Source: an uncultured bacterium (GTDB lineage Bacteria > Chlamydiota > Chlamydiia > Chlamydiales > SM23-39). From it: a DNA stretch of 64,000 nucleotides. The first letter of the stretch is position 1. Each line of letters opens with the position of its first letter. Under the pieces are notes generated by a model that was not told the origin of the DNA, made no database searches, and saw only the letters and a list, made by a program, of their open reading frames with translations. The translations under genes were made by a program, and so were the position numbers. The stretch lies in NCBI GenBank assembly GCA_963716985.1, contig OY970323.1, positions 736,001 to 800,000 of the forward strand, read 5' to 3'. This document shows, piece by piece, positions 3,583-22,744 of this stretch.

Positions 3583-4013
3583 GATTGCCCCTGTAGTTTG
3601 ATTCGCGAAAACATACAAAGAAGGATCTTTTTTTGCAAAAAGAAATTTTTTTAATCAACCACTCTTTTTCACGACGCAAATCTCTTGTTGGTTTTTTGTA
3701 GATGGAACGAATGCCTTTTAAGGCAAATAATAGTTCCAACCTGGCTGCCATTTCCACTGAGTTGTTGCAAGGGTTTCCAAAGAGACTTTTTTGAAAAAAC
3801 CGAAGAATTTTCTTTGGCTGTTCATTATTGGAGGTGGAGCGATGCGGTTAGAGTTTTCCTACGGGATTGGCATCCTTAAATTTGTGCAAGGACTTTTTCT
3901 GTTCCCAATTCTTCCTTGAAGAAGCTCTTTTCTCTGACGAATTTTGAAAAATCATTGGCAATTCAAAAAAAATATGCTATCACGTTAAGGTGTAGTTTTT
4001 GGTAGGAGGGCAA

Positions 4014-5126
4014 ATGAGCCGCAAATTTTTAGATAGTTTTTTTATTCTTTTTTTATTGGTTTTTATCAATCAGATTTTCGCCGATGAGGTGAAAATTCCC
4101 AATGAAGCCGAAAAGGCAATCACATTTAATTCCCCGGCGAGAATTGCGGTAAAAGGAGAATGGGACTTCTATCTTTCTGCCCATTTCGTTTACTGGATTG
4201 CAAAAGAAGAAGGGATTTCAGTTGCTTCTGTGAACGATTATAGTAATTTTCCTTTTGTTTTAACAACGTATCCGGTGGATACGTCTTACAAACCTGGATT
4301 TAAAGTAGCTTTTGGCATGAACTGCGGAAACTATGACAATTGGGTAGTAGGAGCAGAATATACACGTTTTCACATAGAGCATCATCAAGCATCCGCCTCC
4401 ATACCTTTAGGACAAATTGCGGCCTTCGATATGGATCCCGCATTTGTCTCATTTGAAACAACCTTGAGTGTAAATGGCAATGCCCTCGGATTTACGCATA
4501 GTGCCGGCAAGTGGAAAAACGAAATGGATTTGATTGATGTGAATTTATGCAGGGCCTTCTATTCGGGGAAAAAACTTACGTTTTCACCCTTTTTAGGTCT
4601 GCGTAGCGGGTGGCTTGATCAACATTTTTATGGTAACTATGTAGCTTATGACATTTCCAGCAGTAATCAGCCCTATCTCATTTCTTCAAAAAGCAAGCAG
4701 CATTCATGGACTCTTGGTCCCAGAGTTGGATTCTTTGGTGATTGGCTTTTAGGTTCGGGTTTTAGGCTTTGCGCAGAAGCGGCGGGTGCTATCCTTTATC
4801 AACATTTTCACAACAGTTTTTTAGATACTTTTTCAACAATCGGCTTTCTCAATACTCCCGGTTCGTATTTTAAGCAGAACAAAAACACTTTAAATCCGAA
4901 TTTAGATTGTGAATTAAGTCTTGGATATGGAACCTATTTTGCAAATAATAAATGGCATTTCGATTTAACGGCTGGTTATAGTTTTCAAATCTTTTTCTAT
5001 CAAAACAGGCTTACGGTTTTATCGGTTGACGAATCCAATGTAAGCGATAACGTTTATTTCGATGCGTATACTCCCGCTAATCTCATACTTCATGGCCTTA
5101 ACGTTGCAATGCGTTTTGATTTCTAA
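4014..5126 (+). CDS. Outer-membrane beta-barrel porin (MOMP-like, Legionella Lpg1974-type family)
   Basis: Signal peptide, YKPGFKVAFG, GPRVG and LHGLNVAMRFDF with terminal Phe; AGGAGG RBS before ATG 4014. Confidence 0.8.
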   Translation: MSRKFLDSFFILFLLVFINQIFADEVKIPNEAEKAITFNSPARIAVKGEWDFYLSAHFVYWIAKEEGISVASVNDYSNFPFVLTTYPVDTSYKPGFKVAFGMNCGNYDNWVVGAEYTRFHIEHHQASASIPLGQIAAFDMDPAFVSFETTLSVNGNALGFTHSAGKWKNEMDLIDVNLCRAFYSGKKLTFSPFLGLRSGWLDQHFYGNYVAYDISSSNQPYLISSKSKQHSWTLGPRVGFFGDWLLGSGFRLCAEAAGAILYQHFHNSFLDTFSTIGFLNTPGSYFKQNKNTLNPNLDCELSLGYGTYFANNKWHFDLTAGYSFQIFFYQNRLTVLSVDESNVSDNVYFDAYTPANLILHGLNVAMRFDF

Positions 5127-5288: not shown

Positions 5289-5720
5289 TTGTCTATGGAT
5301 ATTGCCGATAAAATTCGTAAAATCGAGGCCCTCATTGTAGGAGCTAAAAGTGACGGAGAACGACAGGCTGCCGAGTTTGCAAAACAACGCCTCCAAGAAA
5401 AAATCTCTGCTCAACCAATAGAGTATACTGTCAGACTCAACAGCCCTTGGAAAAAAAGACTGTTTGTTGCCATTTGCAGAAAGCACGCTCTTCACGCTTA
5501 TCGCTACATGCGGCAAAAACATACCACCACGATGATTCGAGTATCTCAACCTTTCATGGATTCGGTTTTATGGCCGGAGTTCAAAAAGTATGAAAGAATA
5601 CTCGACAAGTTAACGGACGAGATTTTAGAGGACCTCATTTCTAAAATTTACTTGGTGAAAGAAGAGGACGAAACTGTTATTGCCGGAGAACTTCCGATTA
5701 CGGAGACTGCAACTCTTTAA
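5289..5720 (+). CDS. Hypothetical protein with DUF2786-like N-terminus
   Basis: KIRKIEAL...GAKSDGERQAA N-terminal motif and WKKRLFVAICR...YRYMRQKHTT; clean 143-aa ORF. Confidence 0.6.
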   Translation: MSMDIADKIRKIEALIVGAKSDGERQAAEFAKQRLQEKISAQPIEYTVRLNSPWKKRLFVAICRKHALHAYRYMRQKHTTTMIRVSQPFMDSVLWPEFKKYERILDKLTDEILEDLISKIYLVKEEDETVIAGELPITETATL

Positions 5721-5979
5721 GTCTTTTCGGTTCGGGCAGCTTCTTAGACAGCTGTCTGTGTTTTCCGATGAACTGATTGGGGCGCGCGGTTCACCGAAAG
5801 GTTGATGACAGTAGTGTGCACGCTAAAATAAAATGCAATGAATACATTCCCATTTCTAACCGAAGTGTTCGCCGGCCCATCATGCGGCGCGCTCCCCACC
5901 CATACCAATTCTCTAGACACCCACCTCCGTCAACGCGTACACGGAATCTATCTCTAAGAGAAAATGGATTACAAAAAAG

Positions 5980-7893
5980 TTGCATTTTAAAAAAGCAGTC
6001 ATTAAATTTTTTTTGTCTTTATTGGATGTATGTATGGAATGCTCAGCCCAAGAAACTTTGGCTTTTGAATTTTTAAAAAAAGGCAATATCGGTCATGCGC
6101 GCGTTTTGTTTGAGCAATTATTGCAGAAGGGTTCCCTTGTGGCAAAAAAAGGCCTTGAGCAATGTAAAGAACAGTTCTTGCGCAAGTGTTATAAACAAAA
6201 AAAAGTAGATGATTTTTTAAGAGAGTCTGCGGGCATGGATTTTCTTGCGCCCGCCAGGGCCAGACTTTTAGGAAATAAGGCTTTGGAGGATTTGTCGCAA
6301 AAAGATAGCTTTGCAAAGTTCTTTTTGCATTCGAGTAAAAGAGATGCTTTTGTAGAAATGCGTCAAATTCCTGAGTGGAAAGAATATGCGGAAGGATGGA
6401 TCTCTTTATTAAAGTTGGACGCGGGTCGTGCCTATGCTTCTTTTCTTTCCTTAGAAAAAAAATGGCCCTATCATGCCAAACTGGGGCTTTGCCTGGCTGA
6501 TATCCTATCAAAGAAAAACCTTGAGGCGCAACAAAGAGTTGTCCATTTAAGGCCCATTATTTCTCAACATTTCCCTGAATTTACAAAAGCTTTGGGCTGT
6601 GAATCCGAGGATTCTATTATAGCGCAAAATTTGCGCTGGGGAAACCAGGAGGATTTAGAAAGGGTTTTGGAGATGCCGAACTCTTCGGAACATAGAGGAT
6701 TAATATCTTTGCGTCTGGGCGATCTGGAATGGGAAAACAAAGAAATTAGCAAAGCTAAATCCTATTGGCTTCATGCTAAAAAACTTTCAAGTGCTTTAGA
6801 AGTGGATGTGTTACAGAGACTTTTTGTTTGTGCATATGAGAGAGGGGAGGAATGCCGTGGGAATATTCATGAGCTATATCTGCTTCTTTATCGCAAAAAC
6901 AAATCTGATGCCAAAGAATTTTTGGAAACGGTGGTTTTCGAGTGTGAAAAAGCTGTAAATGGTGTTCCCGTTCCATTCTTAAAAGGAAAGTTTCAGTGGG
7001 AAAAACACGCTCCTTCCGAAGTGATGTTGCTCTATTTAAGTCAGCAATCTTTTGAGATGAAAGGATATCTACCCTATTTTGACAAGCCAAATAATGAAGG
7101 AAGGGATTTTTGGAAAGAAAACTTAAAGGTTTTGAATCAGGAATATTCCCTTTGTGAAAAATATTTAAGATTTAGAATTGACTGTGTATCTTTTTATGAC
7201 ATGCATGAAGAAAAAAGAAGAGCGTTATTTTCTTTGTTGCTAATGAATCCTTCCTTAAAAGAAGAACTGATCGGGCAGTATGTTCAAATGGCTTTATTGA
7301 CTGATGAAGAATGTATCGAGGAGGAATTAAAAAAACTTAGCGAGATTTTCCCTTCTGACTATGATTTGATGCGCCTACGAATTTATTTTGGCTTGGATTC
7401 TTTGGAAACTTTTGCTCTTGTGCTTTCGCCAACTCTTTACCGGGTTCTATGTTTACAAGTTGCTATCGATTGTGGCAAGAAACCAAAACTGCTAATGGAT
7501 TTGTCCGAATGCAAAAAAGATGCAGAAGCTTCCTTCCATCTGTTCGATGCCGTTTCACAGGGCTGTCTACCCGTAAGTAGTGTGATAAAAGTTTTCAATG
7601 CTCTGGTTGAAGAGCCACGAAAAATGTTTCGACGGATTTTTTATTATGGATTTCGGGAAATTGGACCTAAATTTATTGCCCATTGGAAAAAAAAATTTCC
7701 TACCTGTTGGGCTCCTCACTACTATAATGCTTTGCAGCTAGTGAAAAAAAACAAATTTTTTTTCGCAAAGCAGGAAATCAATGCTGCGCTGGAAAAAATT
7801 TCAAGAGAAGATATAGAATTCCACGACTTGGTGAACCTTAAAAACTTCATTGTTGGCGGAAATTTGTTTAATTTCTTGATGGAAGACTTATGA
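5980..7893 (+). CDS. Large alpha-helical/TPR-like protein, first gene of a chaperone-like operon (start may be ATG 6034)
   Basis: 637-aa ORF with TPR-like segments (AFEFLKKGNIGHARVLFEQLL; LGDLEWENKEISKAKSYW). Its stop overlaps the next ATG. Confidence 0.6.
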   Translation: MHFKKAVIKFFLSLLDVCMECSAQETLAFEFLKKGNIGHARVLFEQLLQKGSLVAKKGLEQCKEQFLRKCYKQKKVDDFLRESAGMDFLAPARARLLGNKALEDLSQKDSFAKFFLHSSKRDAFVEMRQIPEWKEYAEGWISLLKLDAGRAYASFLSLEKKWPYHAKLGLCLADILSKKNLEAQQRVVHLRPIISQHFPEFTKALGCESEDSIIAQNLRWGNQEDLERVLEMPNSSEHRGLISLRLGDLEWENKEISKAKSYWLHAKKLSSALEVDVLQRLFVCAYERGEECRGNIHELYLLLYRKNKSDAKEFLETVVFECEKAVNGVPVPFLKGKFQWEKHAPSEVMLLYLSQQSFEMKGYLPYFDKPNNEGRDFWKENLKVLNQEYSLCEKYLRFRIDCVSFYDMHEEKRRALFSLLLMNPSLKEELIGQYVQMALLTDEECIEEELKKLSEIFPSDYDLMRLRIYFGLDSLETFALVLSPTLYRVLCLQVAIDCGKKPKLLMDLSECKKDAEASFHLFDAVSQGCLPVSSVIKVFNALVEEPRKMFRRIFYYGFREIGPKFIAHWKKKFPTCWAPHYYNALQLVKKNKFFFAKQEINAALEKISREDIEFHDLVNLKNFIVGGNLFNFLMEDL

Positions 7894-8180
7894 ATCCTTA
7901 TATTATTTTAGATGTTCCTTTTAATGCAGCCGATGAGCAAATTAGGCAGGCTTTTTATAAAAAATTAAAGTCCGGAGATAAAAACGAAATTACCAAAGCC
8001 TATTCTTTGATTAAAGATGAAAAGTCGAGAAAAAAGTTTCGTTGGCTCTCCATTCCTAGTTATTACGTAAATATTTCGGATTGTTACGAGATGACTTCTG
8101 AAAAAATGGAAAAGATTGCTGGTGAAGTTGCTTTTTTGTCCGAATGGGAGCTTGGAAGGGATTTTTATGGACCTTTATGA
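7890..8180 (+). CDS. Small J-domain-like protein lacking the HPD motif
   Basis: MNPYIILDVPFNAADEQIRQAFYKKL...EITKAYSLIKDEKSRKK matches J-domain helices I, II, III and IV; no HPD. Confidence 0.75.
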   Translation: MNPYIILDVPFNAADEQIRQAFYKKLKSGDKNEITKAYSLIKDEKSRKKFRWLSIPSYYVNISDCYEMTSEKMEKIAGEVAFLSEWELGRDFYGPL

Positions 8181-8736
8181 AGATCAGAGAATTCCCACTC
8201 TTTATGACTTTGTCTTATCAAGTGAAAAAATGGCAACGGAGATTAGAAAACAAAATAAAGAAATAAAAATTCTTTCCTCTCTTTTACAAGAGCAAAATGA
8301 AAGAGAAATAGTCAAAAAGGAGGACATCTCTTCAATAAAAACGATTCTTCAAATAGCTGACTCTTTGTTTTATCTTTCCGATGCTATCCAAAAAACTTCC
8401 GCGGCAATACTTACAGCAATTTCTTCAGGTATTTGGTTTTTTAATTTTGGGAGAAAAGGGTGGCGGCATCAAATGAAAGGTTTGCTGGATTCTTTAATTG
8501 AAGGAGTTGAACTAATCGAGGTCAAGAATCGAACGATTTTGGAGGATTTAGATATCGAGATGATATCTCCCCTTGTGGGAGAAGAATTTTCACCCAGCAT
8601 CCATAAGGCTGTTGAACAGCTTACTGGAAAGCCGGGGCGGATTGTCAAAGTATTACAAAAAGGCTATCGGTATAAAGAGAGAATTCTTCGTTATGCTCAG
8701 GTGGCGGTAGGAATAGAAACAAAGGAAAGATCATGA
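8167..8736 (+). CDS. GrpE-like nucleotide exchange factor (paralog)
   Basis: C-terminal GEEFSPSIHKAV...IVKVLQKGYRYKERILRYAQVAV GrpE signature. Confidence 0.85.
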   Translation: MDLYEDQRIPTLYDFVLSSEKMATEIRKQNKEIKILSSLLQEQNEREIVKKEDISSIKTILQIADSLFYLSDAIQKTSAAILTAISSGIWFFNFGRKGWRHQMKGLLDSLIEGVELIEVKNRTILEDLDIEMISPLVGEEFSPSIHKAVEQLTGKPGRIVKVLQKGYRYKERILRYAQVAVGIETKERS

Positions 8737-10433
8737 AAAAGAGCAGGTGTGTGGGAATTGATCTTGGAACAACCAATTCCGAGGTAGCTATTGTTGTGGA
8801 TGGAAAAGTTCAAGTGATTGCGATAGACGGATCTTGTATTATGCCATCTGTTGTTTCCCTCGATTCGAAAAATAAAATTCTTGTAGGGTCTTTAGCGTTA
8901 AACAACCGTTTGGCGGCTCCTGATCATACGGTTTCTCTTATCAAGAGGAAGATGGGAAAAGATGAGCTGTTGTCTTTGGGAGGTAATAATTATACTCCTG
9001 CAATGATCTCCAGTCTCATATTATCCAGGCTAAAATTAGCTGCTGAGGAATATTTGAAAGAACCTGTAACCCAGGCTGTCATTACGGTTCCGGCTTTTTT
9101 TAATGAGCGGCAACGAGCTGCAACTAAAGAAGCCGGAGAACTTGCAGGATTTGAAGTTTTGCGCCTTTTGAATGAGCCTACTGCTGCTGCCAGGGCGTAT
9201 AATTTTAAGAAAGCTACCGAAGAGACTTGTTTGGTTTATGATTTGGGTGGAGGAACCTTTGATGTCTCTATTGTGCAATTTTCTGATGGCATTATGGAAG
9301 TTCGTGCAAGCAATGGGGATACGGAGCTTGGCGGTTCTGATTTCGATCGAATGATTGCCGAAAAAGCTAACGCAGAATTTATTGAAGAGCATGGGATTGA
9401 TCTGAGCAAAGATATTTTAAGCTGGAATCGCCTTTTGATTGCAGCTGAAAAGGCAAAGATAGCTCTTTCCACGGAAGCTTATGCTGATATGATCGAAGAA
9501 TTTATCTATCAAAAAGATGGAAAATCCTACCACCTGAATTTCAAGATGACAAGAGTGGCGTTTGAAAACATGGTAGGGCCTATTTTGGAAAAAACACTGA
9601 ACTCGGTAAAAAAATCCATGGAGCAGGCTTGCTGTAAAGCAGAAGATTTACATCGTGTAATTCTTGTTGGGGGTTCTACTTACATTCCTAAAGTGTCTCA
9701 GCTTTTAGAAAGGGAATTGAATATTCTGCCTCAAATAGCCATTAATCCTTCTACGGCCGTTGCTCAAGGAGCTGCTATCGAGGCTGCAAATCTTACGGGT
9801 GAAGAGATCGGCTCTTTAATGGTTGATATCACGCCACATAGCTTAGGAATAAAAGTTTTTGCTGATGACCATATGGAAAATGCTTTTCTTATTCGTCGCA
9901 ATACTGTGCTTCCTGCGGTAGCTTCGCAAATTTTTTCCAAAGTTCATGAGGATCAGGATGTTGTGGCCATTTCCGTATATCAGGGAGAGTCGCTTCATTT
10001 GGAGCATAATCAATTTTTGGATGAGTTTCAGCTGACAGGCCTGGCTGAAAGTTGGGATTCAGATATTTGTGTGAAATTTGAATTGGATCGCAGTGGTCTT
10101 TTGATTGTCTCTGCAACTGACGTCGATACGGGTAAAAAGGTCAACAAGACAATTCAGCAAGCATCAAAAATGAGCATGAAAAATGTCCATTTGGCAGATT
10201 TAAGCAAATTGGATTTTGCGATCCAAGAACAATCTTTTGTCGAAGAAACTCTGGAAAAAGAGGAAAAAAAATCTTTAAATGAAGAAATCATACAAAGAGC
10301 TATGAATATTCTCCGTAAGAAAAAGGTTAGCGCAGAAGAAGAAAAGTCGATTCTGCAAGAAATCGAGAAGATCAAAGCTGGCGATAAAGATGCCGAAGCG
10401 AAACTAAAAGAGACGCTCTATTATCTGGATTAG
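8733..10433 (+). CDS. Hsp70/DnaK-family chaperone paralog with shortened lid
   Basis: GIDLGTTNS, AVITVPAFF, LNEPTAAA, VYDLGGGTFDVS, LGGSDFD and ILVGGST motifs; linker LMVDITPHSLGI; 566 aa. Confidence 0.93.
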   Translation: MKKSRCVGIDLGTTNSEVAIVVDGKVQVIAIDGSCIMPSVVSLDSKNKILVGSLALNNRLAAPDHTVSLIKRKMGKDELLSLGGNNYTPAMISSLILSRLKLAAEEYLKEPVTQAVITVPAFFNERQRAATKEAGELAGFEVLRLLNEPTAAARAYNFKKATEETCLVYDLGGGTFDVSIVQFSDGIMEVRASNGDTELGGSDFDRMIAEKANAEFIEEHGIDLSKDILSWNRLLIAAEKAKIALSTEAYADMIEEFIYQKDGKSYHLNFKMTRVAFENMVGPILEKTLNSVKKSMEQACCKAEDLHRVILVGGSTYIPKVSQLLERELNILPQIAINPSTAVAQGAAIEAANLTGEEIGSLMVDITPHSLGIKVFADDHMENAFLIRRNTVLPAVASQIFSKVHEDQDVVAISVYQGESLHLEHNQFLDEFQLTGLAESWDSDICVKFELDRSGLLIVSATDVDTGKKVNKTIQQASKMSMKNVHLADLSKLDFAIQEQSFVEETLEKEEKKSLNEEIIQRAMNILRKKKVSAEEEKSILQEIEKIKAGDKDAEAKLKETLYYLD

Positions 10434-10435
10434 CG

Positions 10436-10810
10436 ATGCAATGTCCGATCTGCAATTTTTTCCATTCTCTCCCTGTTAAGGTTTGTAGTCGTTGTGGCGC
10501 TAACCTCTTTTTGTTAAAAAAAACAAAGGAGGTGGTCTTGACCGGAAAAATTGGTCATATTCTTACCGATTATGTAGGCATTTATAAAAATGATTTTGGA
10601 ATTGTAAATGTTGAGCTTTCAAAAGACAAAATTCAGGCAAGTTTTCAACAAGAGAAGATATTTCTTGCGCATTGTTACCACAATGTATTTGTCGAGCAAG
10701 AAGAAAAAGCTGTTTTTTTTCAATTTTTCGATAACCTCGAAGGAGTGATTGATCGTGTTACGGTTTTTTTTGAAAAAGAGAACGCTACGGAGTTTTTGAA
10801 AATGCTATGA
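10436..10810 (+). CDS. Zinc-ribbon protein with DUF3471-like C-terminal region
   Basis: CPIC-x9-CSRC, followed by LTDYVGIYKN..GIVNV...L.H....F; starts 2 nt after the Hsp70 stop. Confidence 0.5.
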   Translation: MQCPICNFFHSLPVKVCSRCGANLFLLKKTKEVVLTGKIGHILTDYVGIYKNDFGIVNVELSKDKIQASFQQEKIFLAHCYHNVFVEQEEKAVFFQFFDNLEGVIDRVTVFFEKENATEFLKML

Positions 10811-10949: not shown

Positions 10950-11000
10950 CCCCGGAGATCTTGGACATTGTCGGTATCATAATCCTTAAAAATTGATCCG

Positions 11001-11558
11001 TCAGGAATGTTGGGTAAAGTAGTTTAATTTTTTTAAGAAAGAATCAAATTTTTGGGGATGCCCTTCCCGAATAGACCACCTCTTAATTTCTCGAAGATCA
11101 ATTTTTTGAGAAATCTCTTTGCAAAGTGTTATGGCCTGATCTAGAGCCTGGTTGTCGCCCCAATGATAAAAGCTGGCAAGACGATCTTTCACACTATCTG
11201 TGGGAGTGAGCATTTTGATAATTCCTAGAGGAGTTTGACGATCTTCAAAATGATGGATCGGCTCGTTTCCAATGGAAACAGGAGGTGAAACGAATTCGAT
11301 AAAATATTGGCAATGGGGATGGCTGAAATATTTCCCTTTCTTCTGAAAGTCCAACTCATTTAAGGCTTTTGCAACTGTTTTCATGTCTTCGTAGGTTACA
11401 TAATCCAAGTCATAGGATTGATAGCGATTATGAGAATAAATGGAAACACAAGCGCCGCCTACTAAAACACTTTCTATCCCATGCTTTTTTAATTTTTCCG
11501 ATACGATGGCAGCAAGCTCTTCAAGGGTAATTTCTTTATCATTGATCTTTTTGTTCAT
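11001..11558 (-). CDS. Nucleotidyltransferase-fold protein, putative type IV-like TA toxin
   Basis: VLVGGACVSIYS...SYDLDYV (GG...DxD) Pol-beta superfamily motif. Confidence 0.7.
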   Translation of the reverse strand: MNKKINDKEITLEELAAIVSEKLKKHGIESVLVGGACVSIYSHNRYQSYDLDYVTYEDMKTVAKALNELDFQKKGKYFSHPHCQYFIEFVSPPVSIGNEPIHHFEDRQTPLGIIKMLTPTDSVKDRLASFYHWGDNQALDQAITLCKEISQKIDLREIKRWSIREGHPQKFDSFLKKLNYFTQHS

Positions 11559-11890
11559 AGAGGTTTTCCTTTTTTCCGAGGTCTTTTCCTGATCATCGGT
11601 TCATAATATTTATCCTTTATCTCTTGGGGGAGAAATGCATAAGCTTTTGTAAGAAAAGCTTTCAATTCTTGCAAAAAGGGATATCTGGGATTGAATTGAT
11701 ACCAGCGAGTTTTTCCTTCCAAAAAACTGACAATGATACCACCGGTTTCTAATCGATCTAAAACCTTCTGAAAGGGAGACAAGGCTTGTCCAAAAGTTCG
11801 GCGCAACTGTCCTCCATAACAACGATCATTGATCAAAAGATAAAAAAGAACTTTTTCTACGTTCTTCCCTCCGAAAATTGACTCTAGCAT
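11555..11890 (-). CDS. Winged-helix DNA-binding protein, putative antitoxin/autoregulator
   Basis: LSPFQKVLDRLETGGIIVSFLEGKTRWYQFNPRYP wHTH; ATGA overlap with the NTase gene. Confidence 0.75.
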   Translation of the reverse strand: MLESIFGGKNVEKVLFYLLINDRCYGGQLRRTFGQALSPFQKVLDRLETGGIIVSFLEGKTRWYQFNPRYPFLQELKAFLTKAYAFLPQEIKDKYYEPMIRKRPRKKGKPL

Positions 11891-11899
11891 AATGAACTT

Positions 11900-11936
11900 A
11901 CCTATATTTTAGGTTATATAACCTATAATATAGGTT
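11900..11936. promoter_or_regulatory. Tandem palindromic operators upstream of the wHTH-NTase operon
   Basis: ACCTATATTTTAGGT followed by AACCTATAATATAGGTT. Confidence 0.6.
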
Positions 11937-12012
11937 GAATGTTTATGAGGCAATTCAATTTTTTTAGCCTTTGTTAAGAACTGATAGAGGAGGAGGTTGA
12001 ATGTAATGTCAT

Positions 12013-12080
12013 TAAAAAGAAAAAGGCCGAGTTCGATAACCCGGCTGGAATGGAGGTGGGGATATGCATTCGGAACTTTT
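12013..12080 (-). repeat. tmRNA-3'-end junction repeat, copy 1 (att-like)
   Basis: AAAAAGGCCG...CCGGCT hairpin + TGGAGGTGGGGATA + TGCATTCGGAACTTTT; compare the tmRNA end at 22345-22395. Confidence 0.75.
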
Positions 12081-12750: not shown

Positions 12751-12828
12751 ATAAAAAAGGCCAGGAATTTTCCTGGTCTTTTGGTATTTTTGGAGGCGGA
12801 GAGATGCATTGCAGAACTTTCAACTGGA
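12751..12828 (-). repeat. tmRNA-3'-end junction repeat, copy 2 (best preserved)
   Basis: ATAAAAAAGGCCAGGAATTTTCCTGGTC + TGGAGGCGGAGAGA (13/14 identical to the tmRNA end) + TGCATTGCAGAACTTTCAACTGGA. Confidence 0.85.
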
Positions 12829-13107: not shown

Positions 13108-13749
13108 TCATATAATCGTCCTGGTATCTTGGCTCATCGCCTTGAGTTGATTATTTGCTTTGTTCCATTTTTCATCGATCAGATGTCCGCCATTTACAAA
13201 TAAAAAATACAAAGCAACAGCAGGAAAATTAAGGATAATCTCGAGGCGCTTCATAATCTCGCTTCCCAAAATGCGATTTCTTTCTAAAGCATTCAACGAA
13301 GCTTGTGAAAACTCAAAAACTGCTGCAAATTCACGAGTAGTTAATCCCAGAGATTTTCTAAAAGTGATCACATCTTTAATTGTTACTTTTCGTTCAAAGA
13401 TGGGGAAAAAAATGAATGAAGAGGGGCCTTTTCTGCCAATTGTAGATAAAAGAATAAGAGGATCGCGCTCTTTAGGATCCACCCCCATAGCCAAACAATA
13501 TTCCGGGTAGGCAGGATTTTGAAGAGAAGGGATGCGATCTTCCAGCGAAGGGAAGAGATGTGTGGAAACAAACTCTTTTTGAGTTAAGGGGAGCTCTGGG
13601 CCAAGCGGGATAACATTTTTTGCTTTAAAATAGTGGTCATCATAGGTAAAAACTAGTTTTTTTTTCCTTCGATATAGGGCTCCGACAGGTAGCATTGTTC
13701 TGCGTTTTTCCAAAAATATACGAACTCCAATAATTTTTAAACTTTGCAT
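13108..13749 (-). CDS. HipA N-terminal (HipS-like) domain fused to an XRE HTH, putative antitoxin
   Basis: VGAL...FTYDD.Y...PLGPELPL...LFPSLEDRIP, then FRKSLGLTTREFAAVFEFSQASLNALER HTH. Confidence 0.8.
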   Translation of the reverse strand: MQSLKIIGVRIFLEKRRTMLPVGALYRRKKKLVFTYDDHYFKAKNVIPLGPELPLTQKEFVSTHLFPSLEDRIPSLQNPAYPEYCLAMGVDPKERDPLILLSTIGRKGPSSFIFFPIFERKVTIKDVITFRKSLGLTTREFAAVFEFSQASLNALERNRILGSEIMKRLEIILNFPAVALYFLFVNGGHLIDEKWNKANNQLKAMSQDTRTII

Positions 13750-14639
13750 AGCTCCTCGCTTCGGCTTGTAATGAGACGCAAAAGAGCTTTTTGTCTTTTT
13801 TCACTAAGGTAACTTTTATCAAACAGGCTTTTAATTTTTTCTAATGAAAGCTGCTTTCGAAAACGGTCGACGACATCTTCATAACCCAGGCGATTCCATT
13901 CTCGGACATAATCTTTCATTGTTGGTTTGTCAGTTTCTTTAGTAAAGATAGCTCCTCTTGGTTGAAAATCTGCCCCCAATATGGAAGGGTCTTCTAAAGC
14001 TAAGGACGAGGGATTATCGTAAAAAGGAGTTAGGTGCATTGCTTTTGCAGATCGAATAAAACCTAAATTGCGGCCATGACGATCGTGATTCCCTATCAAA
14101 CTATCTGCCAAGGTAAGATAAGCAAACCTCTCTTGTTCAGCTCTTCTTCCGGTCTGCTTTCCAATGATATCAACAAGATTTTCACAATCGTAACTCATTT
14201 TGCTTTCTACTAGATGATAAAGATGAACGAGATTAGAGCTTGTTAATTCGGACATGAAATTTTTAGTAACAAAACAAAATTGATTTTCTGGAAATCTAAC
14301 TAAATAATAATCTGGTATGTGTATATTTAAGTTTTCAAAGATCTGATTGCATAAAAATTCTGTAGCAGGTAGCTCGGGGTATTCTTTCTGTTGAACTTTT
14401 AGAATATAGCTAACGTTCCCTAAGCGAGTAGAATATTTGCGATAAGCACCATTAAAAAAACTTATAGTTAATCTTTGATTTTCTTGCAGGTCGAGGGATT
14501 GGGATCTGGCAATAAGATCTAAAAATTTACAATCTTCGTGCAAACCAAACCATTCTTTAAAGCAACGATTATGTAGTCCATAACAAGATTCTTCATTCCT
14601 AGAGAGTGGTTGATGACAGTAACAACAAAAAATTTGCAT
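13737..14639 (-). CDS. HipA-family kinase (HipT-like, lacking the N-subdomain), putative toxin
   Basis: SFFNGAYRK, YILK, E.LCNQI, LIGNHDRHGRN and LTPFYD motifs; N-terminal CCYC..H..C; RBS before ATG 14639. Confidence 0.85.
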   Translation of the reverse strand: MQIFCCYCHQPLSRNEESCYGLHNRCFKEWFGLHEDCKFLDLIARSQSLDLQENQRLTISFFNGAYRKYSTRLGNVSYILKVQQKEYPELPATEFLCNQIFENLNIHIPDYYLVRFPENQFCFVTKNFMSELTSSNLVHLYHLVESKMSYDCENLVDIIGKQTGRRAEQERFAYLTLADSLIGNHDRHGRNLGFIRSAKAMHLTPFYDNPSSLALEDPSILGADFQPRGAIFTKETDKPTMKDYVREWNRLGYEDVVDRFRKQLSLEKIKSLFDKSYLSEKRQKALLRLITSRSEELCKV

Positions 14640-14670
14640 TGTGAGTTGTCCTTTCTTTTCATCATAAACA

Positions 14671-14719
14671 TGATACAATATTGTGTCAAGTTAAACATGA
14701 CACAATGTTGTGTCATGTT
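14671..14719. promoter_or_regulatory. Two tandem palindromic operators upstream of the hip operon
   Basis: TGATACAATATTGTGTCA and AACATGACACAATGTTGTGTCATGTT. Confidence 0.7.
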
Positions 14720-14820
14720 ATTTCTATATTGTTAATAATGAAAGGTTTGGCGCTGAAAAAATGGGCATGTCTTATCTGGGATTTGGACTTATTTTGCTCT
14801 CTTTGAACACAGTGGCATTT

Positions 14821-14866
14821 AAAAGAAAAAGGCCGAGGGGAGATGCATTCAGAACTTTTCAGTGGG
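14821..14866 (-). repeat. tmRNA-3'-end junction repeat, copy 3 (internally deleted)
   Basis: AAAAGAAAAAGGCCGAG + GGGAGA + TGCATTCAGAACTTTTCAGTGG. Confidence 0.7.
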
Positions 14867-15120: not shown

Positions 15121-15152
15121 ATAAAAAGGAGCATTCAGAACTTTTGACTGGA
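15121..15152 (-). repeat. tmRNA-3'-end junction repeat, copy 4 (further deleted)
   Basis: ATAAAAAGG + AGCATTCAGAACTTTTGACTGGA. Confidence 0.6.
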
Positions 15153-15394: not shown

Positions 15395-15518
15395 GGCCTT
15401 GTTCACTTCGAGAGGGAAAACTTTCGATCAGTGGATGGCACAAGTCAGCAAAGTCGCCCTCATCATTGAAAAACAAAGTCAGTCGCATTAACAACTGACC
15501 GAAGAAGTGAACATGGCC
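15395..15518 (-). mobile_element. 124-bp MITE, copy A (IS1595/ISPna2-like ends)
   Basis: TIRs GGCC(A/T)TGTTCACTTC; inverted copy of 15721-15844. Confidence 0.9.
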
Positions 15519-15720
15519 ATATTGGATAGTAAGGGTGAAAGAGGACCTCCTTGCGGAGTTCCTTCTTCCGTAGGTTTTACAAGACCATCCTCCATAACTC
15601 CTGCTTGTAAAAATCTTCTTACCAGTAGGAGGATCTTTTTATCTTTTACCTGTCTTGCTATTCTTGCCATAAGCATATCATGATTAACCCTGTCGAAAAA
15701 CTTTTCCAAGTCAATGTCTA
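15519..15720 (-). pseudogene. Inverted internal fragment of a group II intron reverse transcriptase
   Basis: DIDLEKFFDRVNHD...GTPQGGPLSPLLSN on the minus strand; the frame continues on the plus strand after MITE copy B. Confidence 0.9.
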
Positions 15721-15844
15721 GGCCATGTTCACTTCTTCGGTCAGTTGTTAATGCGACTGACTTTGTTTTTCAATGATGAGGGCGACTTTGCTGACTTGTG
15801 CCATCCACTGATCGAAAGTTTTCCCTCTCGAAGTGAACAAGGCC
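15721..15844 (+). mobile_element. 124-bp MITE, copy B
   Basis: Same TIRs as copy A. Followed by TCCAATAT, whose reverse complement abuts copy A (8-bp TSD). Confidence 0.9.
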
Positions 15845-16758: not shown

Positions 16759-16848
16759 AATTAAGAAGAGTCAAGATATTAGAGCGGGTTTTCCTCAGTA
16801 TGTCCATTTTTTCTGGACATGCTGAGGAAAAAATGCATAATAAAAGTT

Positions 16849-17466
16849 ATGGACTTTAATTTATTTAGACAAGAAACCGATTCGGAAGTATTTGATTATC
16901 AGTATCTTGCGGATCATTTTAGGAATTTAAAAAAACCAAGAGACAAGGTTACCTCTTTAGTTGCTGAAGGTAAGGTTCTTAGGGTAAAAAAGGGAATTTA
17001 CGTTTTTGGTGAAAGGTGGCGCAAAGCTCCTCTTTCATTAGAGATGGTGGCTAATGTGCTCTACGGTCCTTCTTGCGTTTCCTTTGAATATGCTCTGACT
17101 CGCTATGGTCTTCTTGCTGAGAGATCATCTGTGATCACATGTCTGACGATTGGCGATACGAAAACCTTTCAAACGCCGCTTGGAATCTTTGAATACCGAG
17201 CAACTGATAGGGAAAAATTTAAAATAGGCATAGAATATAGAGACTTGGGAAAAGAGGGAGGGTATCTGATCGCATCGAAAGAAAAAGCATTGGCGGATTT
17301 TGTATATCGAACACCTGGTATCCGAACTTTAGGGCAACTCCGCTATTATCTTTTTGAAGAAATGCGAGTGGATAAAACAATATTCGAGAAGTTAAATAAA
17401 GACGTTTTTCGCGCGATTGCAAAAGTTTATAAAAAAAAGAGCATTATGCTGCTGAGTCAATTATGA
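16849..17466 (+). CDS. AbiEi-like type IV TA antitoxin
   Basis: LRVKKGIYV, YGPSCVSFEYAL..YGL and ASKEKALAD motifs. Confidence 0.8.
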   Translation: MDFNLFRQETDSEVFDYQYLADHFRNLKKPRDKVTSLVAEGKVLRVKKGIYVFGERWRKAPLSLEMVANVLYGPSCVSFEYALTRYGLLAERSSVITCLTIGDTKTFQTPLGIFEYRATDREKFKIGIEYRDLGKEGGYLIASKEKALADFVYRTPGIRTLGQLRYYLFEEMRVDKTIFEKLNKDVFRAIAKVYKKKSIMLLSQL

Positions 17467-18335
17467 GCCAAGTCATTGAAGAAATGTTAAAAAATTACAC
17501 ACCTCGATCTAAAACTGATTATGAAGGCGCTATTCAGGAGATCATGCAAGAAATTACCTTGATGGGTTTGTGGAGGAGAAAATTTTTTGAACACGCAGCT
17601 TTTTATGGTGGAACCTCCCTTCGCATTTTGTATGGACTCAATCGATTTAGCGAGGATCTCGACTTCTCTCTTCTTAAACCAAATCCCCATTTCAATCTTC
17701 TGCCTTTTTTGAATGCGATTGAAGAGGAGTTGGAAATTTCGGGATTAAAAGTCACTGTGGATCATAAAATCAAACATCCTGAAGGATCGATCAGCTCCGC
17801 TTTTTTAAAAACGGGGACTTTGGAGACATTCATCCGGATTGGTTTAGATGAACAGCTAAAAAAAAATACGCAATCGACTGAGGTGATTAAACTGAAGCTT
17901 GAGGTCGACATTAATCCACCTCCAGGCTTTGAAACCGAAATCCGCTATCTTACAAGACCCTTTCCTTTTTCCGTGCGTACCTACGTTCCGGAGGATTTAT
18001 TCGCAGGAAAAATGCATGCCCTATTATGCCGACCTTATAAACTGAGAGTGAAGGGGAGAGACTGGTACGATCTCATTTGGTATATCTCCAAGGGATTTCA
18101 TCTGAACTTAACACATTTAGAAATGCGGATGCGGCAGTCTGGGCATTACAAAGAAAAAACCTGCCTCGCGCCAGAACAATTTTTGGCCTTAATGGAAAAT
18201 AAAATTGCTGGACTCGATGTGAAGGCTGCTCAAGAAGATCTCTGGCGGTTTATCCGCAATCCGCGTGAGATCGAAGGGTGGTCTAAACCATTTTTCCAAG
18301 ACCTCTTGAAACAGATTCAGTTTGTTCCAAATTGA
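17463..18335 (+). CDS. AbiEii/AbiGii nucleotidyltransferase toxin
   Basis: FYGGTSLRILYGLNRFSEDLDFSL, KLEVD, AGKMHA and KGRDWYD motifs; ATGA overlap with the antitoxin. Confidence 0.92.
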   Translation: MSQVIEEMLKNYTPRSKTDYEGAIQEIMQEITLMGLWRRKFFEHAAFYGGTSLRILYGLNRFSEDLDFSLLKPNPHFNLLPFLNAIEEELEISGLKVTVDHKIKHPEGSISSAFLKTGTLETFIRIGLDEQLKKNTQSTEVIKLKLEVDINPPPGFETEIRYLTRPFPFSVRTYVPEDLFAGKMHALLCRPYKLRVKGRDWYDLIWYISKGFHLNLTHLEMRMRQSGHYKEKTCLAPEQFLALMENKIAGLDVKAAQEDLWRFIRNPREIEGWSKPFFQDLLKQIQFVPN

Positions 18336-19461: not shown

Positions 19462-21376
19462 GTGCGCCAAGAGAAGCTGCGCACTTCTACTGGTGAAAGT
19501 CCAGGCATAAAAAGTGGATAGCCACCACATTATGTAGCGAATCTTGCAACTCCGGAGGTAACAAAAGAGCTGAAGCGTAGATAGCGAAACATTCGAGCCA
19601 AAACCGTGAGGTGAATGCGTTAAGTCTCGAGAGGTATATCGTGCAAGCCGAAACTTTCGTATTAGGAGCAGGCAACAGATGGGAAGCGGGTCAAAATGGC
19701 GAAACCCTGCGATCATCAAGCACCGGGATATTAAGCATTGGCGAGCTTGTAGAGAAGTGTGACGGAACTTGGGAAGTCCTTATTGCTCTCCGAAGGGAGT
19801 ATTTGTGGTTCAAGCGCCATGAACGTAAGACTGCAAAGATGGGATAAGGATGGCGGAGTCCACCATAGTAGCGAGGAACCGAGTAACGATCGGGGAGCAA
19901 AGGGTGGATAGAACAGAAACGAACGAAAAGGTGGAAACAATGTCTGTACACAGCAAAGACAGATATACAGTGTCAATGAAGCTGGATCGTATAGGAGATC
20001 TTTCGGCAGGAAATCATGATCTGGTGTTCAATAATCTGGGACATCTTATCAACGAGGAAATGCTGATGAGAGCATTTGCACAGCTTGATGGAACTAAAGC
20101 TGTAGGAATTGATGGTATAACAAAAGAAGCATATGGCAAAAATCTGGAGGAAAATCTCCGAATGCTCGCTGCGAAAGTGCATCGGGCGCAATATGCGCCA
20201 CAACCATCAAAGATAGTTGAAATACCCAAAGCAGATGGAGGCAAAAGACCTCTGGCAATATCCTGCATAGAGGACAAATTGGTGCAGATGGCAGCGGGAG
20301 AGATTTTGAACAAAATCTATGAACCGCTCTTTCTGCCGAGTTCTTTTGGATATAGGCCCGGGAAAAGCTGCCATGATGCTATTACCGCTTTGCACCAAGC
20401 AGTATACGAGTGCAAAGATGGCGCTCTATTGGAGATTGATATTCGGAAGTATTTTAACTCTATTCCACATATGGAAATGGAGGCTATACTACAGAAGAAA
20501 ATCAACGATCCAAAATTCCTGAGGCTGATACATATTCTGTTGCAAGCAGAAACCATCACAAACGATGGGGTAGTGCAAAAGAATTTAGTCGGATGCCCAC
20601 AGGGATCGGTCACTTCACCGATTTTATCAAATATCTACCTACATGAAGTGGTGGATAGTTGGATAGAATCCATTCGAACATATCTCAAGGGAAAGATCTT
20701 TCCGATTCGTTTCTGCGATGATATGGTATTTGTATTCGAATGCAGTGAAGATGCGGAAAGGTTCTATAGAGCGTTTACCCAAAGGTTGCAGAAATATGGA
20801 CTTGCGGTTCACGAAGACAAGTCGCATCTGCACTCCTCGGGATCGAAAAGAATAGCAGAAATGGCGGCCAAGAAACAAAAGCTGCCTGTTTTCAAATTTC
20901 TGGGATTTACCTTCTTCTGGGAAAAAGCGCAGAAAGGGAACTTCTGGAGATTAAAAGTCCGCAGCAGAGGAGATCGGAAGCACTCGAAACTTCAGGGATT
21001 ATCAAAATTTCTGAAAGAGAATAAAGCCATGAAAACCTTGATAATGTTTCAACAGATACTGCCAATCATCAAAGGGTGGATCAACTATCATGCAGTGACC
21101 GACAACTCTAGAGCGGTAAACGGATTTATCTTCCAATGCGAAAGAGCTATCTTCAAATGGATCAACAGGAAAGGTGGCAGAAAGAAAATGAGTTGGGAGA
21201 AATTCGAGAAAGTTCTGGAAAAAGTGGGCTTTCCAATGAAGTGGAAAATCAAATGCATCATAGGAACTCCTAAGGTAATCAAAACCTAAAAGGACTGTTC
21301 GGGAGCCGGATGCGGGAAACCTGCAAGTCCTGGTTCTGAGGAGGGGGAAGCGGAGCAATCCGCTCCTCTACTCACC
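19462..21376 (+). mobile_element. Apparently full-length group II intron
   Basis: 5' GTGCG; DV GAGCCGGATGCGGGAAACCTGCAAGTCCTGGTTC; DVI with bulged A at 21370; removal restores the tnpA frame. Confidence 0.88.
19850..21289 (+). CDS. ltrA: Group II intron reverse transcriptase/maturase, no endonuclease domain (true start may be 19940)
   Basis: KAVGIDG, IPKADGGKRPL, SFGYRPG, EIDIRKYF, GCPQGS, RFCDD, FLGF and GWINYH motifs. Confidence 0.93.
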   Translation: MAESTIVARNRVTIGEQRVDRTETNEKVETMSVHSKDRYTVSMKLDRIGDLSAGNHDLVFNNLGHLINEEMLMRAFAQLDGTKAVGIDGITKEAYGKNLEENLRMLAAKVHRAQYAPQPSKIVEIPKADGGKRPLAISCIEDKLVQMAAGEILNKIYEPLFLPSSFGYRPGKSCHDAITALHQAVYECKDGALLEIDIRKYFNSIPHMEMEAILQKKINDPKFLRLIHILLQAETITNDGVVQKNLVGCPQGSVTSPILSNIYLHEVVDSWIESIRTYLKGKIFPIRFCDDMVFVFECSEDAERFYRAFTQRLQKYGLAVHEDKSHLHSSGSKRIAEMAAKKQKLPVFKFLGFTFFWEKAQKGNFWRLKVRSRGDRKHSKLQGLSKFLKENKAMKTLIMFQQILPIIKGWINYHAVTDNSRAVNGFIFQCERAIFKWINRKGGRKKMSWEKFEKVLEKVGFPMKWKIKCIIGTPKVIKT

Positions 21377-21814
21377 AACGATACAACATCGTCATATAAT
21401 AGTTTAGCCCATTCCAGGTGGGATTGCAAATTCCACGTGGTATTTATCCCAAAATGCAGGAAAGAGAAATTGTATGGTCAAGTAAGAAAATTTTTAGGTC
21501 CCGTTTTTCGAGAATTGGCTCGTCAAAAAGAATGCACAATTATGGAGGGGAAAATGATGCCTGACCATGTCCACATGTTGATTCAAATTCCTCCCAAGTA
21601 TCCAGCCGCATCAGTGATAGGGTACATAAAAGGAAAAAGTGCAATCGCAGTTGCTCGTCAATTTCGTGGTAAAAAGAGAAATTTCACAGGAGAACAGTTG
21701 TGGGCTCGAGGGTATGCAATATCAACCGTTGGATTTGAAGTAGAGAAAATCCGAGCATACATCAAAGATCAGGAGCGCTTAGACAGTCAAAATGAAGAAG
21801 AGGGTTCGTTTTAA
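21377..21814 (+). CDS. tnpA: IS200 Y1 transposase, exon 2 (exon 1 is the ATG at 19459-19461)
   Basis: NDTTSSYNSLAHSRWDCKFHVVFIPKCR...DHVHML (HUH)...YIKGKS...WARGY...YIKDQ. Confidence 0.9.
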   Translation, partial: NDTTSSYNSLAHSRWDCKFHVVFIPKCRKEKLYGQVRKFLGPVFRELARQKECTIMEGKMMPDHVHMLIQIPPKYPAASVIGYIKGKSAIAVARQFRGKKRNFTGEQLWARGYAISTVGFEVEKIRAYIKDQERLDSQNEEEGSF

Positions 21815-22344: not shown

Positions 22345-22372
22345 ATAAAAAAGGCCGGGAGATTTCCCAGCT
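22345..22372 (-). terminator. tmRNA intrinsic terminator
   Basis: Minus strand AGCTGGGA-AATC-TCCCGGCC-TTTTTT. Confidence 0.75.
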
Positions 22373-22381
22373 CTGTAATTT

Positions 22382-22744
22382 TGGAGGTGGAGAGAATCGA
22401 ACTCTCGTCCTCAGTAAACTCCATATTCATGACTACATGCTTAGCATCTTAGGGTAGATCGACTTTGCTGCAAGACGCAAGCACTTCAAGTCGAGCCTTC
22501 TTTCTTTGTCTCGAAGGGCTCCTAAAAGAAGAAGAGAAAAACCTTCATGCCAGGGTCGTGACGGTAGATCCCAAGACTCCTGGTCAGGTCTATGGGCTAC
22601 CGAGCGCATAAAACTGTTAGGTCTTACGCAGCCAATGCCAATTTAGGTTCGGCAATTAATGTTTTATCGGATTTTTAAGAGGCCAACCGACGTCCTCTGC
22701 ATGCCACGGATACTTTATTTCCGAGTCGAAACCGTTACACCCCC
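22382..22744 (-). ncRNA. ssrA: tmRNA; tag reading frame AEPKLALAA* at 22653-22624
   Basis: 5' GGGGGTGTAACGGTTTCGAC; 3' GGACGAGAGTTCGATTCTCTCCACCTCCA; tag ends in LAA; next to ileS as in Chlamydia. Confidence 0.95.

Follow-up and report, generated by a model that had tools for sequence, protein, structure and literature searches.

A mobile five-gene unit from an uncultured chlamydial bacterium joins a specialised Hsp70 to a J-like protein without an HPD loop

This study deals with a chaperone-like gene unit at positions 5980 to 10810 of a 64,000-nucleotide stretch of DNA, referred to as the window, from an uncultured bacterium of the Chlamydiales (GTDB lineage SM23-39; assembly GCA_963716985.1, contig OY970323.1, positions 736,001 to 800,000 of the forward strand). 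The unit encodes a large helical protein, a J-like protein, GrpE, Hsp70 and a zinc-ribbon protein, and it is a real, conserved, mobile and specialised Hsp70 system. Alignments show that the loop which carries the histidine-proline-aspartate (HPD) motif is deleted in the J-like protein and that the residues of the Hsp70 facing this loop are changed. Docking of the J-like protein to the large helical protein is predicted, and we infer that the Hsp70 is fired without HPD. This motif is regarded as essential for J proteins that fire Hsp70, and the unit bears on that view.

Five open reading frames (ORFs; 5980-7893, 7890-8180, 8116-8736, 8733-10433 and 10436-10810) lie closely coupled on the plus strand. 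Two junctions are 4-nt overlaps (7890-7893 and 8733-8736), the ORFs of the J-like protein and GrpE overlap, and a 2-nt gap (10434-10435) precedes the zinc-ribbon gene. This coupling had been described in a first-pass annotation of the window and was confirmed, as were the intact ATPase motifs and the short lid of the Hsp70, the lack of HPD in the J-like protein, the absence of hrcA and CIRCE (controlling inverted repeat of chaperone expression) in front of the unit, and the location of the housekeeping dnaK in an hrcA-grpE-dnaK cluster. For the gene of the large protein, here termed the scaffold, ATG 6034 is the more likely start, because P0126, the public gene call, sets in at query residue 19; the protein would thus comprise 619 instead of 637 amino acids. 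Likewise, grpE more likely starts at ATG 8167 (189 amino acids), because GGGA stands 5 nt upstream. In Pfam scans, HSP70 (456.8 bits) and GrpE (71.5 bits) were found, DnaJ remained below its cut-off (26 bits; cut-off 27.8), and the scaffold ORF matched no family. The zinc-ribbon protein showed a weak DUF3471 match in its tail, which is peculiar to the copy in the window; its relatives keep only about 45-60 amino acids around or after the ribbon. The GrpE proteins of such cassettes have a common N-terminal motif which the housekeeping GrpE does not possess, and the cassette GrpE may have a structural role.

The order scaffold-J-GrpE-Hsp70-zinc ribbon was kept in all seven loci of the same phylum, although one of them (G197) is distributed over two contigs and three (G348, G499 and G482) break off inside the scaffold gene where their contigs end. 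The five genes form one conserved unit, separate from the housekeeping DnaK/DnaJ/GrpE genes; with the same order of genes in six further genomes, this exceeds chance. The genome carrying the window (G000) possesses its own hrcA-grpE-dnaK cluster at about 590 kb of contig C1, with a CIRCE-like site at 592249 (genes identified from translations), and it holds one other full Hsp70 (39% identical to that of the unit) and one canonical DnaJ. No CIRCE-like match was present in window positions 5501-6040 when up to six mismatches to the consensus were allowed, and the ORF upstream of the scaffold gene is not hrcA according to a Pfam scan. A scan for promoters and terminators was uninformative (14 and 7 sites vs 12.6 and 5.8 in shuffled sequences).

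The J-like protein has kept the fold of a J domain. Nearly all Foldseek matches listed for its model were J domains (best E value 0.01), and its core matched J domains in a sequence search of the PDB (E value 3.5e-6). All 33 homologues have retained this fold; P3 and A37 are invariant among them, and Y38, I41 and R47 nearly so. HPD was found in none of these 33 proteins, nor was a PD or PE variant. The stretch between the aromatic residue of helix II and the tyrosine of helix III comprises 15-20 residues (16 in 23 of the 33 homologues), in comparison to 22 in the J proteins of five related non-chlamydial cassettes, which carry FPPE, NPPD, YPPE or FPAH (twice) where HPD would stand, and 28 in DnaJ. 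In the AlphaFold2 model, helix II (15-28) is followed by a two-residue turn and helix III (31-41). These alignments show a deletion of the whole HPD loop in the J-like proteins of the clade represented by the window (the module clade). The hairpin has a net charge of -4 to +3 among the homologues, near neutral or acidic in most. The tail holds six of eight invariant columns, and its mean conservation is 0.78, in comparison to 0.52 for the J core.

In the Hsp70, the residues equivalent to DnaK D8, K70, E171, D194 and T199 are intact, whereas the segment after DnaK residue 507 comprises 85 amino acids, vs 132 in DnaK and 83 in HscC. Against the NCBIfam model prok_dnaK the protein reached 464 bits (cut-off 822). 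The linker reads GSLMVD instead of the canonical DVLLLD, so that VLLL is replaced. A C-terminal (Y/F)(Y/F)L motif occurs in 51 of 63 Hsp70s of the module clade and 19 of 23 of the related cassette type, and in 0 of 35 DnaKs; at window positions 10415-10433 this end motif might be a signal for docking to the scaffold or to the zinc-ribbon protein, whose gene begins 2 nt on.

In the main tree (46 rows; IQ-TREE quick mode, LG+G4), with which a FastTree analysis of 97 rows agreed, the Hsp70 of the unit was placed in a clade of 14 (Shimodaira-Hasegawa-like approximate likelihood ratio test, SH-aLRT, 100%; stem 0.69) among the related cassette Hsp70s, and the chlamydial DnaKs formed a separate clade. 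A grouping of the Hsp70 with chlamydial DnaK, named beforehand as a finding that would speak against a dedicated module, was rejected by the approximately unbiased (AU) test (p-AU 9.5e-6; 22 rows). A pairing of the two cassette Hsp70s whose hosts belong to one family was likewise rejected (p-AU 0.0015; pair chosen after the first trees). Two clade members (P0069 and P0073) are labelled Planctomycetota, and the clade is thus not confined to chlamydiae. The homologue search yielded about 60 proteins with at least 46% identity over most of their length, followed by a wider group with Planctomycetota-type labels. A branch with 99% SH-aLRT unites HscC, the Hsp70 of metagenome locus L117 and the cassette Hsp70s, with HscC on a long branch (1.75) and its placement unsure in this quick tree.

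H33 of DnaJ contacts L391 of DnaK, P34 contacts P419, and D35 contacts R167 and Q378; within the clamp of DnaK, D481 contacts I168/R167 and K414 contacts D326 (PMC8215388, PMC13012618). The exchanges D481A and K414I raise the basal ATPase activity 80-fold in the first case and 25-fold in the second (PMC8215388). DnaK residues Q378, L391, D326 and D481 correspond to E350, M363, Q298 and S454 in the window. Residues were counted over 63 Hsp70s of the module clade, 23 of the related cassette type and 35 DnaKs (three duplicates dropped; subsets of the more distant homologues and DnaK loci were aligned). Position 378 is E in 63 of 63 clade members and Q in all Hsp70s of the two other groups (23/23 and 35/35). 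At position 391, M is present in 59 of the 63, vs L throughout the others (23/23 and 35/35). D326 is retained in 0/63, in comparison to 22/23 and 34/35, and the clade has M, Q or E there. At position 481, S stands in 59 of the 63, and the others carry D or N throughout (23/23 and 35/35). The nucleotide site has stayed constant in the clade (K70, E171 and T199 each 63/63; D393 invariant too). Of the residues that transmit the substrate signal, I438, V440, L484, P143 and K70 are kept in the module-type Hsp70, and D148 is replaced by E.

Beside these positions, R56 is N in 63/63 clade Hsp70s, and most of them have R or Q in place of E264 and V or L in place of K55. We take these positions to form the salt bridges of the nucleotide cleft. 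The bridges look lost in the alignment, which would speed ADP release, and yet a private GrpE is kept.

The scaffold model was helical throughout (mean predicted local distance difference test score, pLDDT, 90.2; predicted template modelling score, pTM, 0.73). Fold searches returned generic solenoids of tetratricopeptide repeats (TPRs) only (TM score about 0.2; best Z score 10.8, with a root-mean-square deviation of 27.5 over 449 residues), and TPR_2 was matched by 20 of 46 members of the scaffold family. A protein search found 65 scaffold homologues with 24-38% identity. The model of the scaffold together with the J-like protein reached a score of 0.73, vs 0.00 for the best of three controls; of the solved pairs, 116 of 157 attained the mark used, as did 2 of 215 mismatched ones, and these counts are only roughly applicable here, where own alignments were used. 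Runs shared at least 79% of the contacts, and the partner pLDDT was at least 79. In the predicted interface, J residues 48-94 lie on scaffold residues 39-304; neither helix II nor helix III is listed there, which does not prove them free. Scaffold columns in the interface are more conserved than the remaining N-terminal half (0.50 vs 0.41; p=0.009), and 7 of 24 columns conserved to at least 90%, including the invariant D230 and R262, lie in this 69-residue interface. A sequence search of the PDB found no solved chain that matches the J tail; solved chains match the J core and generic TPRs only, and recall of a like complex by the predictor is thus not apparent. The model supports, and does not show, binding of the J tail to the scaffold. 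The earlier proposal that the module serves the large helical protein stands as regards a dedicated machine and, by this prediction, a physical link; since the predicted link runs through the J-like tail, the protein is more likely a scaffold than simply a client.

It is moderately probable in our view that the unit is a mobile, dedicated Hsp70 set in which the loop-less J protein is clipped by its tail to the scaffold and the Hsp70 hydrolyses ATP without HPD in order to remodel a specific client. The tail (residues 48-94) would bind the N-terminal half of the scaffold and leave the shortened hairpin of helices II and III exposed. Recruitment to the scaffold and the meeting with a client might then be enough to fire the Hsp70, and the altered HPD-facing residues together with loosened clamp contacts, which restrain hydrolysis in DnaK, could permit this HPD-free activation. 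The client would be chosen by the zinc-ribbon protein and by that C-terminal half of the scaffold which stays free, and the private GrpE would reset the cycle. Most likely the purpose is a conditional, stress-linked remodelling or disassembly of one protein complex, which would make the unit an accessory trait and not a device for general folding.

Several points weigh against this interpretation. Three further residues in contact with the J domain are retained (R167 in 62/63, E217 and P419 each in 63/63), so that the docking site is only partly changed. The substitutions were inherited along one stem and thus represent one event, not 63. The J-like protein is tied to its own Hsp70 gene in only seven loci, and the other Hsp70s were typed as loop-less by their position in the tree. 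Published clamp mutants comprise D481A and K414I only, and the module has D481S and changes of D326. Finally, there is some circularity in the test of interface conservation, since models of this kind are themselves driven by conserved columns.

The unit is rare. Among 400 genomes from the phylum, four, the own genome included, possess a strong orthologue of the scaffold; 39 weak matches (E values of at least 6.6e-6, mostly at profile positions 500-660) were discounted as generic TPR matches, and one genome (G005) was unscored. In the own family, 2 of 103 genomes possess a scaffold orthologue, and in a second family (f3) 1 of 29. A search with the J alignment was positive in 3 of 73 genomes of family f6 and in 0 of 129 of family f9, the latter search containing no positive genome. 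Outside the phylum, TPR-J-GrpE-Hsp70 cassettes were detected on two cyanobacterial plasmids (Nostoc and Acaryochloris) and in 3 of 80 metagenome loci among the matches listed in a scan with universal Hsp70 motifs; the zinc-ribbon gene was found at three of these five loci. Most of the other metagenome loci listed read as dnaK, and L117 has a different arrangement: at L117:2970-6616 a GrpE-like protein and a short Hsp70 stand with an N-terminal J domain that has HSPE and is fused to TPR repeats. The Acaryochloris strain carries J and Hsp70 on each of NZ_CP071718.1, NZ_CP071719.1 and NZ_CP071720.1, with two of the Hsp70 matches in two pieces. DNA that is nearly identical was found in contigs of soil and peat metagenomes from three studies; among the sequencing runs listed, none containing it was of RNA, which has no bearing on expression. 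Judged by the source labels of its nearest Hsp70 homologues, the host is probably an environmental chlamydia. Of six loci from an Hsp70 scan of GTDB contigs (38-42% identity), the five with enough sequence read as ordinary dnaK and were rejected. Hsp70 matches in phage records were rejected as well, being of DnaK level (at most 42.5% among 20 listed of 40). A weak search of viral contigs with one Hsp70 query yielded no relative, and a plasmid search with P0069 (E value up to 1e-100) no match.

The features of the unit and of its surroundings are compiled in Table 1.

Table 1. Features of the gene unit and of the surrounding island (positions in the window).
Feature	Position	Strand	Remarks
TPR-like alpha-solenoid scaffold, 619 aa	6034..7893	+	frame open from TTG 5980; N-terminal half is the predicted holder of the J-like tail
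J-like adaptor, 96 aa	7890..8180	+	J fold, HPD loop deleted; conserved C-terminal ELAFLSxWELG-type motif
Cassette-specific GrpE, 189 aa from ATG 8167	8167..8736	+	206 aa from TTG 8116
Specialised Hsp70, 566 aa	8733..10433	+	ATPase site intact; short C-terminus (LYYLD end); J-contact and clamp residues altered
Zinc-ribbon protein, 124 aa, CPxC...CxRC	10436..10810	+	DUF3471-like C-terminal tail
Distal copy of tmRNA 3'-end junction repeat	3826..3843	.	18/19 identical to a copy elsewhere in the genome; degenerate
Two short relic repeats upstream of scaffold	5731..5834	.	diverged copies elsewhere in the genome; possible insertion sequence (IS)-end scars
56-nt relic of a 1.7-kb element	10953..11008	.	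87.5% identical; seven genome copies of the element; directly 3' of the module
Nucleotidyltransferase and helix-turn-helix (HTH)-like pair	11001..11890	-	neighbour outside the module; toxin-antitoxin (TA)-like
Junction repeat: terminator-like hairpin and tmRNA 3'-end copy	11997..12080	.	proximal side of the module segment
Further junction repeat copies	12751-12820, 14803-14865, 15131-15151, 22345-22395		
HipA-type pair	13108..14678	-	neighbour outside the module; PADLOC PDC-M03-like; only HipA_C found in the genome
AbiEi-AbiEii pair	16819..18335	+	neighbour outside the module
tmRNA gene	22382..22744	-	island anchor

Copies of the 3' end of the transfer-messenger RNA (tmRNA) gene were detected at 22375, 12784 and about 12050, together with partial junction copies at 14822-14865 and 15131. 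With the degenerate distal copy, which is likely the outer edge of the island, they place the module in the distal segment of a stacked island. In another genome of the same family (G073), PhoH and tmRNA-ileS-lepB stand in the same order, with own junction repeats and other cargo (RhuM, Fic), whereas the stretches covered in the five other relatives examined contain no tmRNA. No tmRNA was found in the available DNA around the six other module loci of the phylum, and the tmRNA is thus one landing site and not part of the system. The GC content at third codon positions (GC3) of the five genes is 0.30-0.36, within the lowest 7% of 1146 long ORFs, vs a genome median of 0.478. These observations support a mobile, accessory and patchily distributed module.

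Further features of the island were noted. The segment of the module also holds a porin gene of the Legionella_OMP family, which has many paralogues (3999-5126), and an orphan ORF of 143 amino acids (5289-5720). Upstream of the HTH-nucleotidyltransferase pair, positions 11900-11935 form a near-palindrome of 36 nt that may be an operator. The region of a broken group II intron maturase contains a perfect inverted repeat whose 124-nt arms stand 202 nt apart (15395-15844), and a group II intron reverse transcriptase is followed by a piece of an IS200-type transposase (19850-21814). A second cluster of three junction-repeat copies, with no tmRNA called there, is located about 1 Mb away (G000:C1:1738700-1743100) and may be a part of the array that was displaced. 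G031, which belongs to another family, has an AbiEi-AbiEii pair directly beside PhoH (L170:13787-15359).

TA modules were detected at most 3.5 kb away at four of the seven loci (G000, G068, G348 and G499), in comparison to an expected proximity of 2-5% per genome (four families, first four genomes). The only HipA_C of G068 lies 72 nt upstream of the module, and a Fic gene directly downstream; G348 has its only ParE, with Phd, near the module, and G499 a Phd-PIN pair. At G197, PADLOC candidates (PDC-S01 and PDC-S27) were found at 3.6 and 6.2 kb. G487 lies among housekeeping and polysaccharide genes, and neither there nor on the visible side of G482 were TA or defence genes present among the ORFs read or scanned. 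The Fic gene of G068 (L038:13690-14964) abuts the module and matched PADLOC SoFic (E value 1e-39); Fic genes are common, with ten in that genome. Eukaryotic Fic enzymes reportedly AMPylate the Hsp70 BiP.

This context had led to the suggestion of an anti-phage system, in which the scaffold would recognise a protein of a phage or mobile element and the Hsp70 would unfold or trap it, or trigger the neighbouring toxins. Such a system is compatible with the mechanics proposed above and differs in purpose; we regard it as a tentative possibility. It fits the rarity and patchiness of the module, the conflict between Hsp70 tree and host family, the HipA- and AbiE-type cargo of the tmRNA island, the nearby TA modules and PADLOC candidates, and the fast divergence of the scaffolds, and Hsp70-like parts have a precedent in conflict systems (PMC7159879, PMC11090510, PMC12642450). 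However, none of the five genes matched PADLOC 2.0.0 (2023 library; E values up to 0.01), and neither did five scaffold or zinc-ribbon proteins from outside the chlamydiae. Family scans of the five genes yielded no effector family, whether nuclease, TIR, protease or another. The TA families were picked after the first loci had been seen, and among the three later loci only one has a TA pair. The immediate neighbours scanned at the three metagenome cassettes are not defence genes, and the TA neighbours differ at every locus, as insertion hot spots predict; a ParE-like gene with an internal stop even stands just 3' of the housekeeping dnaK (G000:C1:587738-587986). Shared insertion hot spots thus explain the TA context just as well as defence does. 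Of the original suggestion, the association with mobile DNA was borne out, whereas a function in defence was not established. A more specific version combines both thoughts: the loop-less J on its TPR scaffold would fire a pre-loosened Hsp70 by positioning, and the unit would act as an effector-free immune system that disassembles a complex of the invader and travels between chlamydiae. This version appears doubtful.

The J-like protein might instead be a pure tether or inhibitor similar to mitochondrial Pam16 and not engage the Hsp70; the latter would then be fired by the single canonical DnaJ of the host or act as a passive holder. Loss of HPD abolishes stimulation in every system tested except for HPE (PMC13254874), and the mostly neutral or acidic hairpin hardly resembles that of DnaJ, which docks via positive charge (PMC8215388). 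The retained R167 and the canonical DnaJ of the genome would also suit a tether. On the other hand, the partner of the HPD aspartate, Q378, is E throughout the clade and the VLLL linker is replaced, which would disfavour canonical DnaJ, and the J fold is kept in all homologues with its invariant P3 and A37. A mere tether is considered unlikely. Far less probable is that the machine acts where DNA is replicated, by means of a sliding-clamp motif in the tail of the scaffold: the scaffold of the Nostoc plasmid ends with QELF, but a loose clamp-like pattern was found in the last 25 residues of only 3 of 46 members of the family, the scaffold of the window not being among them, and the role was rejected for the module clade as unsupported by sequence. 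That the operon is a decaying passenger, with the missing loop as a sign of decay, is hardly credible: low GC3, IS-like relics on both sides and long branches would fit, but the frames are open in the loci read, catalytic residues are invariant in 63 Hsp70s with about 46-57% identity to the query, the same deletion occurs with an invariant tail in 33 J proteins with about 31-49% identity, and, as a weak hint, five of six coding differences in low-depth contigs are synonymous.

In a review from 2026, it is termed enigmatic whether J proteins without HPD arose by accident or through selection (PMC13254874). The module offers a small, soluble, four-protein test case for this question, open to ATPase assays and residue swaps. 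The sequences further provide a graded natural series from HPD with a 28-residue hairpin via PPx with 22 residues to the loop-less form with 16, with matching changes in the Hsp70. Should the module protect against phages, it would be a defence system built solely of chaperone parts. No publication on the gene unit was found in a search of full-text literature; the J-protein survey of Barriot et al. (2020, J Mol Biol) may list the family.

With the canonical DnaK-DnaJ-GrpE system the module has the three protein families, the ATPase site, R167, E217, P419 and the substrate-signal residues in common. In contrast to it, the module Hsp70 is only 39% identical and without a disordered tail, linker and clamp are altered, HPD as well as HrcA/CIRCE control are missing, and the unit is rare and mobile. 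Related five-gene cassettes have PPE, PPD or PAH where HPD would stand (L040-L042, L045 and L046), and their gene order and Hsp70 branch are the same. Unlike the module clade, they keep the 22-residue hairpin, Q378, L391, D326 and D/N481, and they do not possess the ELAFLSxWELG tail motif; judged by these sequences, the module clade has gone one step beyond them.

Type IV or pseudo J proteins such as Pam16 and DnaJB13 also have a J fold without HPD (PMC13254874), and the module J is likewise probably an adaptor with a second binding element. Here, however, the loop is deleted and not substituted, the protein is bacterial and has its own altered Hsp70, and a functional partner similar to Pam18 is not encoded. 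The GAP1-N2 DO-GTPase conflict systems also contain Hsp70 and GrpE beside DnaJ- or TPR-fused proteins and zinc ribbons (PMC7159879). No DO-GTPase, tubulin or FNIII was seen in or beside the module, and no GTPase in the 18 window ORFs scanned; nor was GAP1 seen nearby, which rests on the large neighbours having other families, as no GAP1 profile was used.

HscC of E. coli is likewise short (HscCs comprise 550-580 amino acids, the module Hsp70 566). According to the features of HscC given in PMC8215388, the module Hsp70 resembles it in the deletion of DnaK 76-101, where two residues remain (a feature also of 9/35 DnaKs). The insertion in loop L1,2, of 4-8 residues by definition, is +3 in the window, +4 in 53/63 relatives and +4 in HscC. 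Both also have a short C-terminus, a private J partner with altered HPD and helical-repeat neighbours, and they appear on the same side of the tree; in E. coli hscC stands with the DjlB and DjlC genes (ybeQ-ybeR-djlB-ybeT-ybeU-djlC-hscC). The module differs in its GrpE-signature loop, which has 14 residues as in DnaK (8 in HscC), and in its own grpE gene. DjlB and DjlC are large, tail-anchored HPE proteins, whereas the J partner of the module is small, soluble and loop-less, and the unit has no gene of the DjlB/DjlC type. Furthermore, the module is one co-oriented five-gene unit with a 619-residue scaffold and a zinc ribbon, and HscC possesses neither Q378E nor D481S.

In the HscA-HscB-IscU system, the logic would be similar, with a rigid complex of J protein and partner that recruits a dedicated Hsp70 by positioning (PMC10939069). 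Unlike the module, HscA works without GrpE, and gene context and client are unrelated. HscB has HPD. The module would work like the dedicated machines of the HscA and HscC type and, judged by its GrpE and its partners, belongs to neither.

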